Below, in pieces: positions 15,154-17,131 of a stretch of DNA of 64,000 nt. A program made the position numbers and the translations under genes. Under the pieces are notes generated by a model. That model made no database searches and was not told the origin of the DNA. It saw only the letters and a list, made by a program, of their open reading frames with translations. Source of the stretch: Acidobacteriota bacterium (GTDB taxonomy: Bacteria > Acidobacteriota > UBA6911). The DNA lies in assembly GCA_963664705.1 (NCBI GenBank), contig OY761556.1, forward strand, positions 6,080,001 through 6,144,000, in the 5' to 3' direction. The first letter of the stretch is position 1. Every line of letters begins with the position of its first letter.

Positions 15154-15279
15154 ATGCACTTCCTGGGAGGGCCGCCATTCGGGCCAAGCTGCAGGGTATT
15201 TGCAGAATTCCAGATTTCAGATTCCAAATTCCAGACCAGGACCAGGGAGTACTCACTGGGAGGGTCGCCGTCCCGGCTA
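15154..15279 (-). repeat. ~125-bp composite REP-like repeat, copy 1
   Basis: The reverse complement aligns by eye with 28864-28990: two GCC..GGCG..CTCCCA units flanking TCTGGAA/TTTGGAA heptamers. Confidence 0.75.
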
Positions 15280-15451
15280 CCGCCGCATAACAATTGTTCA
15301 CGCCCTGCCGACGCGAGTGAGGCGCCAGGTCCGGAGGGCCGAAAGCAAGTAGACATAATGGAGTGATCGGTCTCTAGCATGTAATATCGTGGGTTACAGC
15401 TGAAGTCGTGGTGACGAAGCTGCAGAGCCATAAAACATGAGGAGACCGATC

Positions 15452-16546
15452 ATGGCAGATTGTATCACTTGGGTAGGGATGGATGATTCAGCAAAAAAGA
15501 TAAACGTCGCAATTTTTCGCGGGCAGGAAAGTAACCCTCGAGAAGAACTTGTTGTATCAAACGACAGTACGGGGCTGGGTCGGTTAGCGAAAAAGCTAAG
15601 GGCATTTGAAGATGATGTACGGTGCGTCTACGAAGCGGGCGTTAATGGATACTATTTGCAGCGCTATTTGGCCAAACATGGGATTTCTTGTGAGGTTGCG
15701 GCCCCTTCGTTGACTCCGAGACGAGCGGGAAAAAAAGTAAAAACGGATAAGCTGGATGCGAAAGCCTTGGGCAAATTGTACCGAGCGGGAGAACTAACAT
15801 GTATTGTGATCCCGCAAAAAGAACAGGAAAGTCTGCGAGATCTGGTGCGTGCGCGAGAAGACGCATTGGAAGACCAGCAGCGAGCACGGCATCGATTAGC
15901 ACGGTTTCTGATGCGACGTGGATTGAAATATCCGCAGGGCAAGAACTGGTCGCTTGGGCACCTAAAGTGGATTAAGAGCCTTGTGTTTGAGGATGATGGG
16001 GATCAAACAGTACTGGAGGAATATCGACAGGCGCTTGAGCAACAGACGGAGCGGTTGAAAACATTCCAGGGAAAAATCGAGGAAGTTGCAAAACAGCCGA
16101 ACTATCAAAAGCGAGTCAGCTATTTGATGGCGCTAAAAGGCGTTCAGGTTCTGACGGCGATGACGATTATCGCAGAAGCGCTCGATTTAAGACGGTTCGT
16201 TGATGCGCCTTCGTTTATGGCCGCTATTGGGGTGGTGCCTTCGGAAAGCAGCTCAGGTGAACTTGAAAGACGGGGAAGGATAACCAAAACGGGAAACAGC
16301 CACCTACGTAGGGTGCTGATCGAAAGCGCCTGGCACTACCGTCATTCTTCAGTAGCTGGCAAAACTCTCAAGAAACGACGAGAGTGTTTGCCGGCAGAAG
16401 TTATCGAGATTGCACAACGTTGCGATAAGCGATTGAATCAAAAATTCCGACGCATGCTCAACCGAGGGAAAGAAAGACAAAAGATCGCGGTTGCGGTAAG
16501 TCGAGAATTGGCAGGATTTATCTGGGCTATCGGTCGTGTTGCATGA
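15452..16546 (+). CDS. IS110-family DEDD recombinase/transposase
   Basis: RuvC-like 'VGMD', 'YEAG', 'KTDKLDA'. C-terminal domain 'GVVPSESSSG...RGRITKTGNSHLRRVLIESAW' with the conserved Ser region. AGGAG RBS precedes ATG 15452. Confidence 0.95.
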   Translation: MADCITWVGMDDSAKKINVAIFRGQESNPREELVVSNDSTGLGRLAKKLRAFEDDVRCVYEAGVNGYYLQRYLAKHGISCEVAAPSLTPRRAGKKVKTDKLDAKALGKLYRAGELTCIVIPQKEQESLRDLVRAREDALEDQQRARHRLARFLMRRGLKYPQGKNWSLGHLKWIKSLVFEDDGDQTVLEEYRQALEQQTERLKTFQGKIEEVAKQPNYQKRVSYLMALKGVQVLTAMTIIAEALDLRRFVDAPSFMAAIGVVPSESSSGELERRGRITKTGNSHLRRVLIESAWHYRHSSVAGKTLKKRRECLPAEVIEIAQRCDKRLNQKFRRMLNRGKERQKIAVAVSRELAGFIWAIGRVA

Positions 16547-16618
16547 CATAAGGCACCAGCTCTTGCAGCTATTTTGTTCTTCAATGGATTAATAACGGAA
16601 ACATTCGGTTAGTGAACG

Positions 16619-16806
16619 GAACAGGAGATCGAGTTCCAGGCTTCGAAAGGAGAAACCTCGACCTGGCTATGTTGGTATGGGAAACCAGAATCCACGGAAG
16701 TAGAGTGAGGCCGCTCCCGATGAATCAGTTGTCATGCGTGCTTATCGACCCGCGAATATCAGATTGATTATCGTCGCTGTTGCCAACTCGATCCCCTGTT
16801 CTTTTT
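16619..16806 (+). ncRNA. Putative bridge/seek RNA of the IS110 element
   Basis: A 17-bp closing stem (16619-16635 with 16785-16801, one mismatch) followed by a U tract. Internal segments match the target (CCTGGCTA, AAGTAG) and the donor junction (ATATCAGA, TGTC). Confidence 0.78.
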
Positions 16807-16894
16807 ACTGGCTGATTTATTTATGAACCGAAGAAAACCAAAATGAACGAACAAGGAACGGATTGATTGTACTTGACCGATCACTCCATATCAG

Positions 16895-16991
16895 CCAGGG
16901 GTGAAGCGCAGCGAACCCCTGGATTGGATTAGACCAGTAACAAGCCCCAGAGGGGCGGCAGAAGGCGCCGATCCTTCACCCCTCCGGGACC
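16895..16991. repeat. REP-like palindromic cluster interrupted by the IS (left part at ~15328-15350)
   Basis: Hairpin CCAGGGG-TGAAGCGCAGCGAA-CCCCTGG, then GCCCCAGAGGGGC. CCTTCACCCCTCCGGGACC is an imperfect inverse of the left-flank GGTCCGGAGGGCCGAAAG. Confidence 0.65.
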
Positions 16992-17131
16992 TTCCGGGGC
17001 TGAGATGCATCCTATTCCCAGATCCCTCGGGCAAATGATATCCAGCATTAGGTGCCCTGCCGGCAAGGGGGCTAGCTGCTTCCGCAATGCTGATGCCGCC
17101 GGGACGCCGGAACTCCCCGTGGATAGCCGAC

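Follow-up and report, generated by a model that had tools for sequence, protein, structure and literature searches.

The account of the DNA described here that we favour, and to which we assign a probability of roughly 80%, is that an IS110-family element present in 11 genomic copies is served by a two-loop guide RNA, one loop reading a REP-like target and the other the joined ends of the element, and that an antisense RNA from its left end restrains the recombinase. The ends of the element, its AG core, the REP target, the guide positions, the junction-promoter pattern, the left-end module and the promoter motif of that module were established by sequence analysis and comparison. The initial annotation of the 64,000-nucleotide stretch that we analysed (the window) recognized the element and its guide RNA but overlooked that the element has 11 copies and that its target is a REP, and made no mention of handshake letters or of an antisense module at the left end. 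The element and its gene are laid out as follows.

15353..16892, plus strand: IS110-family (IS1111-type) element, 1540 bp between AG cores; 11 copies with the same ends and different flanks
15351..15352, plus strand: left AG core (CT on the minus strand), in all 11 copies and in relatives
16893..16894, plus strand: right AG core, in copies and relatives
15358..15372, plus strand: left sub-terminal inverted repeat, 15 bp, perfect
16875..16889, minus strand: right sub-terminal inverted repeat, 15 bp, perfect
15452..16546, plus strand: recombinase, 364 aa (PF01548, PF02371, NF033542; aligned to 8wt6 and 9t56)

The genome holds 11 full, near-identical copies of 1540 bp with AG on either side of each, and their differing flanks fixed the AG core and the ends that had been proposed; no PF02371 match was found in the genome outside these copies. 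Substitutions relative to the window copy number 0 to 18 per copy, none of them inside 16611-16809, and an internal stop codon occurs in one copy (at 4953185). AG cores at both ends were also seen in 105 of the 111 relatives in which both ends were located by motif. The copies at 1470417, 6872531 and 6558575 are mosaics that have in common blocks of 13-14 gene changes with differing boundaries, a pattern that suggests inter-copy recombination.

The recombinase matches PF01548 (3.7e-16), PF02371 (1.1e-18) and NF033542 (206.7 bits; cut-off 140), and its residues D11, E61, D99, D102 and S268 align with the catalytic residues of IS621 (PDB 8wt6, 9t56). A RuvC-like DEDD domain together with a Tnp domain bearing the catalytic serine places it in the IS110 family. 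The sub-terminal repeats (7-17 bp class), the asymmetric extensions beyond them (7 bp on the left with the core counted, 3 bp on the right), the long non-coding region downstream (346 bp on the right of the gene versus 99 bp on the left) and the order of the target matches, in which the top-strand match lies 5' of the bottom-strand match (the complement at 16662-16669 before 16699-16703), are those of the IS1111 group. The proposal of a complete IS110/IS1111-type element was upheld by the intact DEDD/serine site, the repeats, the junction promoter and the downstream two-loop RNA with its co-varying target guides. In our tree the recombinase falls in its own clade with ISSso6 and ISEc45 (base support 0.35-0.92, in a tree built without IS1111 itself); canonical IS1111-like proteins are about 25% identical to the recombinase, whose clade is separate and longer (364 aa), and plasmid records held no protein of at least 60% identity. 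The element is a new member of a known RNA-guided system class. The description of it as probably uncharacterised goes too far, since a bridge RNA has already been drawn for ISCARN28, apparently of the same clade.

Two halves of a repeat flank the element in the window.

15330..15350, plus strand: left half of the interrupted REP-like repeat, ending in the GT of the GTAG motif
16895..16922, plus strand: right half of the REP-like repeat (palindrome), with 119 scored copies in the genome

Ten of the 11 element copies interrupt the GTAG of this palindrome, and the eleventh, outside any REP, retains only T-AG-CCAGG, the eight letters read by the 5' guide. The REP occurs as A and G variants, of which the guide spells A; within this genome 9 A and 1 G sites are occupied versus 36 A and 73 G sites that are empty (Fisher p 6e-4). 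We were unable to show that the element needs the REP hairpin in addition to a match with the guide: REPs account for 24 of the 29 empty ten-letter matches in any case, and one of the 11 copies lies outside a REP. Candidate empty-site joints in three contig sets (X1, X3 and X5) had a short side of 22-25 letters, and REP copies elsewhere account for them. The genome has a single Y1 transposase gene (1439746-1440395), flanked by two empty, inverted REP copies, which is the layout of REP-associated transposases; this gene is likely the source of the REP family that the element parasitises. Fragments of the element also occur at REPs. At 4126127-4126243 of the contig about 113 bp of an orphan left end abuts the right half of the repeat, with a few differences and with the antisense module kept, the gene, outward promoter and bridge RNA being lost. 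A 15-bp left-end stub, inverted, lies at the REP site 4953419-4953435, about 236 bp from the copy at 4953185, and is perhaps the scar of an inversion or an aborted insertion. Just upstream of the REP in the window, two related 27-nt hairpin-like copies lie 93 bp apart (15158-15277), possibly a second short repeat family, and an inverted relative is found near 17087-17121.

The non-coding region behind the gene contains the predicted guide RNA.

16611..16809, plus strand: predicted bridge/seek RNA, from folding and alignment; identical in the 11 copies while the gene varies
16619-16635/16785-16801, plus strand: closing stem of this RNA
about 16655-16710, plus strand: target loop of this RNA
about 16718-16776, plus strand: donor loop of this RNA
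16662..16669, plus strand: 5' target guide, complementary to target +5 to +1, the core and −1 (z 6.1-10.5 for +1 to +5, 4.8 for −1)
16699-16703, plus strand: 3' target guide, target −3 to −1 plus core (z 6.4-11.5)
16704-16705, plus strand: target-loop handshake letters, equal to donor +1, not target +1, in 49 of 54 relatives

The fold of 16610-16815 has a z of −3.6, and every sequence word quoted in the initial annotation was found where it had been placed. Sixteen of the 17 positions of the closing stem are paired, with one A.C, and the stem can be extended to 16611-16635/16785-16809. The U tract noted in the window is less general: no more than 9 of 54 relatives have one 25-75 nt downstream of the donor guide. 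In the minimum-free-energy fold the guides are paired with one another; the open two-loop fold, in which both sets of guides are exposed, comes from the alignment, and 11 of its 20 pairs show two-sided changes. When the dinucleotides of 16611-16809 were shuffled 20000 times, the chance of finding CCTGGCTA was 0.0009, that of AAGTAG 0.03, that of ATATCAGA 0.0025 and that of TGTC 0.66; CCTGGCTA, AAGTAG and ATATCAGA occurred jointly in none of the 20000. Rfam gave no match at gathering scores in the window and none in 15200-17100 up to an E of 5. Our bridge RNA model (R2) found the 11 copies, one weak partial match (E 0.07) and no orphan bridge RNA.

Co-variation of the guides with targets in homologues had been named beforehand as a test of the guide assignment. 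We fetched 176 loci; 167 of them gave a plus-strand match, and in 111 of these the motif located both ends. After one wrongly called end and all loci with less than 8 nt of flank had been set aside, 54 relatives at less than 90% RNA identity, which are not independent of one another, were kept. Each target position was compared with each RNA column, giving 5280 tests. The best eight were the predicted guide positions and formed the predicted diagonal. The letters at target −1, −2 and −3 were the same as those at 16701, 16700 and 16699 in 52, 51 and 33 of 53 relatives, and target +1 to +5 were complementary to 16666 to 16662 in 45, 48, 42, 45 and 35 of 53, where 13-29 of 53 would be expected for these eight top pairings. 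Because the eight strongest of 5280 signals coincide with the predicted guide positions, we conclude from the sequence comparison that the target guides are real. The AAGTAG guide held in its larger part: AGTAG (16699-16703) co-varies with −1 to −3, but target −4 does so weakly (21 of 53 versus 13.8 expected).

Since kin share letters, 29 disjoint close pairs were also compared. Where the guide had changed, the target differed too at 89 of 108 positions; where it had not, the target differed at 19 of 124. Both partners matched their own target at 69 of the 108 changed positions, although several Dehalococcoidia pairs repeat one event. These pairs point to natural re-targeting among close relatives, in which the guides change with the target.

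Mapping of the ends revealed inverted matches between left ends and donor loops. The features predicted at the left end are these.

15459..15467, minus strand: predicted outward extended −10 promoter (TG-n-TACAAT), over codons 3-6 of the recombinase
15364..15454, minus strand: predicted antisense RNA over the start codon and the ribosome-binding site (15439-15444)
15432-15388, minus strand: guide-less copy of the donor-loop scaffold, inside the predicted antisense RNA

On the minus strand, a motif of the form RYRGCUCU, a variable stem-loop and YAAYCYRCK has both halves in 47 of 54 left ends, and on the sense strand neither half occurs in any of the 54. In many relatives the motif is the inner stem of the donor loop. 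In 32 left ends of usual length, 8 of the 11 pairs of the stem show two-sided changes, a score above those of all 500 shuffles and all slid registers. A covariance model trained on 32 left ends only matched at E below 1e-3 in 48 of 61 and 70 of 80 sources, counts that include the 32 training sequences and one match (L067) belonging to a neighbouring element; by coordinates the matches lie upstream of, and antisense to, the gene. Elsewhere the model gave 25 weak matches, 24 of them on donor loops and none on target loops; the 24 (E 0.002-0.7) belong to a small number of branches whose donor hairpins are long, and the window's donor loop is not among them. The donor loop in the window has a shortened inner stem, is unlike its own left end (z −0.7) and is not matched by the model. 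Among plasmid elements, those of Cupriavidus, Bacillus, Lichenicola, Azospirillum and Pseudonocardia carry the module; Cupriavidus necator N-1, with eight places on pBB1, is one of the carriers. The left-end model did not detect it in the Sinorhizobium, Pseudosulfitobacter and B. thuringiensis loci. One canonical IS1111-like element (L185) has an 11-nt word common to its antisense left end and the region behind its guide RNA (z 2.5); no such shared word was seen in ten other canonical elements.

The module does not appear to be a third guide, which we ruled out for want of a core in register: the core AG stood in guide register in 3 and 0 of 49 modules. The segments equivalent to guides are instead self-paired over at least 4 bp in 30 of 49 modules, versus 4 of 54 in each true loop.

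From these comparisons it is probable that an RNA of about 90 nt is made antisense to the translation start. Whether the recombinase binds its guide-less scaffold is a closer call, and we put binding slightly on the doubtful side; that the RNA acts as a decoy, or as feedback on the recombinase, we suggest only tentatively. A simpler possibility, and one that we hold to be a serious contender without favouring it, is that the bridge RNA works as described and the left-end RNA is a translation regulator resembling IS10 RNA-OUT, not bound by the protein, its likeness to the donor loop being due to common descent or to a motif that confers stability. The predicted RNA would indeed cover the ribosome-binding site and the start codon, IS110-family precedents exist, and the RNAs of this kind in P. 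aeruginosa bind RsmA/N. In the accessible text of PMC11187229, moreover, the RNA pulled down with the ISEc11, ISPa11 and ISKpn4 transposases maps downstream of the gene; these pull-downs are silent on the module, because it is absent from the 11 canonical IS1111-like elements examined. What regulation by translation alone does not readily accommodate is the module's unpaired loop letters, which vary little or not at all even between elements whose proteins are as low as about 30-40% identical, a constancy that pure base pairing would not require, and which are retained in elements whose donor loop no longer has that stem.

We regard it as unlikely that the left end acts on the sense strand, as a 5' UTR hairpin that hides the ribosome-binding site or as a partner of the donor loop, with no antisense RNA at all. 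The sense strand has a strong fold (z −5.65) whose stem takes in the start codon and ribosome-binding site, ISPpu9 has such a UTR (PMC8450116, PMC12288879; accessible text), and at one stem position the wobble changes favour the sense strand in 4 of 49 relatives, the window's element included. Two other positions favour the minus strand: at one, it would hold G.U in 33 and G-C in 14 relatives, the sense strand being favoured in 1, and at the other it would hold U.G in 48 of 49. Stable tetraloops likewise put the minus strand ahead, 8 versus 2, and folding energies pick neither strand (24 versus 30). The outward promoter is a further difficulty for a sense-strand role: TG-n-TAnnnT occurs in 28 of 49 relatives versus 4.3 expected after synonymous recoding and in 9 of 1272 genes of the element's own genome, and TAnnnT stands exactly 7 nt from the start codon in 33 relatives, under 23 different tripeptides. 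Direct pairing of the left end or the sense UTR with the bridge RNA found no support, cognate duplexes being no better than GC-matched non-cognate ones (better in 28 of 54, best of 16 in 3). It was rejected also because plain local alignment of left end and RNA was significant in only 9 of 54 relatives in the antisense orientation, the window's element not among them, and in 0 of 54 in the sense orientation.

The second loop of the guide RNA carries the letters that would read the element itself.

16730..16733, plus strand: short 5' donor guide; donor +2 and +3 co-vary
16756-16762, plus strand: 3' donor guide; tracks 6 of the 9 right ends that vary outside the core
16763-16764, plus strand: donor-loop handshake letters, from the handshake table of relatives

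Donor +2 matched 16731 in 46 of 54 relatives (29.7 expected, z 6.6) and donor +3 matched 16730 in 38 of 54 (22.6 expected, z 4.8). TGTC, proposed as a donor guide, is at chance level alone but gains credit from this co-variation, and of ATATCAGA the part at 16756-16762 was retained as a guide, its last A (16763) being a handshake position. Element ends are conserved and vary little, which makes the donor co-variation test weak, and the donor guides are supported more weakly than the target guides. It could be argued, following the seekRNA model, that only the target loop guides and that the donor matches are passive, the protein recognising the ends at the inverted repeats. A short seekRNA suffices for the movement of ISEc11 (PMC11187229, accessible text), the 5' donor guide of the window's element is short (4 letters) and mismatched, and among 12 representatives with non-standard right ends, 3 of which have core-only changes, the RNA follows 6 and ignores 3. 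Nevertheless, we consider this reading improbable, given that donor −4 and −5 are matched by the 3' donor guide in 54 of 54 relatives, in addition to its following those six ends, that donor +2 and +3 co-vary, and that the donor-loop handshake letter, in 12 of the 14 relatives where it is not A, is the letter of target +1. In 37 of 54 relatives, the window's element included, this letter (16763) is A and pairs with the donor of the element itself; it is non-cognate in 12 relatives. According to the accessible text on IS621, cognate pairing of the donor-loop handshake sharply lowers insertion, and the native handshake pattern favours insertion over excision (PMC11208160, PMC11208158, PMC13626964). 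The window's element is therefore predicted, by analogy, to be less biased to insertion over excision than IS621.

We read the guides on the minus strand, where the core would be CT, the 5' guides would specify the left side and the 3' guides the right side followed by the handshake letters, matching IS621. The AG core is the known CT core seen from the other strand. By this analogy the 'reversed order' of guides in IS1111 needs no other chemistry here, because the minus-strand layout equals that of IS621. That the left-end motif acts in single-stranded DNA, as a hairpin read on the CT-core minus strand of an element excised as a single-stranded circle, is very improbable: single-strand excision of IS621 is described in the accessible text of a preprint (10.64898/2026.08.31.748434) and the G.T polarity suits minus-strand DNA as well as RNA, but the conserved outward promoter and the likeness to an RNA loop are left unexplained.

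Joining of the ends would bring together the halves of a promoter.

16873..16878, plus strand: −35 half (TTGACC) of the promoter that a circle would create, 17-bp spacing after joining
15354..15359, plus strand: −10 half (CATAAT) of the junction promoter, 17-bp spacing after joining

A simple promoter scan is blind to this junction promoter and to extended −10 promoters. The pattern was found in 51 of 54 relatives, counted without a shuffled control. No circle joint was found in contig sets X1, X3 and X5, and such sets cannot show absence. The left flank of one relative (L101, about 260-277) resembles a right end with the core behind it, an arrangement expected of a tandem copy or a junction.

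Returning to the reading in which guide RNA and antisense RNA act together, work on IS621 and ISEc11 suggests the following sequence of events. Read-through would yield a little recombinase and RNA, and the element would leave as a circle, whose joined ends create a promoter driving the gene and the RNA. Two recombinase dimers would grip the two loops, the guides would open both strands of target and donor, and strand exchange would occur at the core. To this we would add a minus-strand RNA, about 90 nt long and beginning at the start codon, that would base-pair with the ribosome-binding site and present the protein-binding scaffold of the donor loop with the guides closed, so that rising recombinase might be soaked up by, or stabilise, its own repressor RNA.

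The guide system as a whole has close counterparts. As far as the accessible text of PMC11187229 goes, ISEc11, ISPa11, ISKpn4 and ISPst6 resemble the element in having a DEDD recombinase, sub-terminal repeats with asymmetric extensions, an RNA downstream of the gene and a junction promoter; in IS1111 seekRNAs, too, the top-strand match lies 5' of the bottom-strand match and the matches overlap, and ISPa11 shares a REP target. In contrast to the IS1111 seekRNA elements, the window's element belongs to a longer, separate protein clade and has AG duplicated at both ends, and the left-end module that it carries is found in 0 of 11 canonical elements. IS621 and ISCro4, in the accessible parts of PMC11208160, PMC11208158 and PMC13626964, share with it two internal loops, four guides, a minus-strand CT core, handshake letters after the right guides and a REP target. 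They differ in that here the RNA lies behind the gene, the inverted repeats are long, the sites are inverted relative to the gene, the donor-loop handshake is usually cognate (37 of 54) and there is an antisense loop copy. Bridge RNAs have been predicted for 93% of IS1111 elements (same sources). Nearer kin are ISSso6 and ISEc45 (names from plasmid annotation), in the same tree group with proteins 38% and 36% identical, which our bridge RNA model matches at 80 and 34 bits; ISSso6 carries the left-end module, and ISEc45 is without a significant left-end match. On a Shigella plasmid, ISSso6 (L180:1-680) immediately follows an IS110 gene of the ISEc20 family. A bridge RNA was predicted by Durrant 2024 for ISCARN28 (PMC11208160, Supplementary Table 1), which by eye has the same motif pattern and looks like a member of the same clade. 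The targets of ISSso6, ISEc45 and ISCARN28 differ from that of the window's element, and among titles and abstract openings no functional study of these three was found.

Antisense RNAs over a transposase 5' UTR are likewise familiar. P. aeruginosa carries a six-copy IS110-family element, which we take to be ISPa11. The antisense RNAs SPA0004-8/SPA0066 of this six-copy element bind RsmA/N (PMC3349714, 10.1101/2020.08.24.265819; accessible text). Asr9 and Asr10 lie over the 5' UTRs of ISPpu9 and ISPpu10, and Asr9 activates translation rather than repressing it; ISPpu9 also has an AG crossover in a REP (PMC8450116, PMC12288879; accessible text). All of these, together with IS10 RNA-OUT, are like the predicted RNA in their position over the transposase 5' UTR. 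Asr9 and Asr10, however, are the complement of the upstream guide-RNA region (PMC8450116, PMC12288879), unlike the same-sense scaffold copy predicted here, and in the text accessible to us none of the RNAs just named is described as such a copy. A copy of a guide loop within an antisense RNA was not found in the literature, a search whose scope stopped short of subscription papers, figures and preprint supplements. The accessible text of 10.1101/2025.10.25.684509 and of 10.64898/2026.08.14.744561 held nothing relevant to a left-end mimic, and that of 10.64898/2026.03.19.712850 no description of one; the 86 models of 10.64898/2026.10.21.760802 (seen in part) might include the left-end motif. 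What we would tentatively propose for the ISSso6/ISEc45-like clade is a third recombinase-binding loop, guide-less, antisense and translation-blocking, which mimics the donor loop and limits copy number (an "anti-bridge RNA").

The guide RNA adds one more well-supported ortholog to a class known since 2024, together with a clade-wide code of about 5 + 3 target letters around the core and rules for the handshake letters. What is new is that the minus strand of the left end repeats the donor-loop scaffold. Should the RNA predicted there prove to be a decoy loop, an RNA-guided recombinase would come with an RNA inhibitor of its own, bridge editing would gain an off-switch, and constructs that keep the native left end and the first codons may carry their own repressor. 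Such a decoy would also bear on the self-limitation of these elements and would show the minimal RNA motif bound by the protein.
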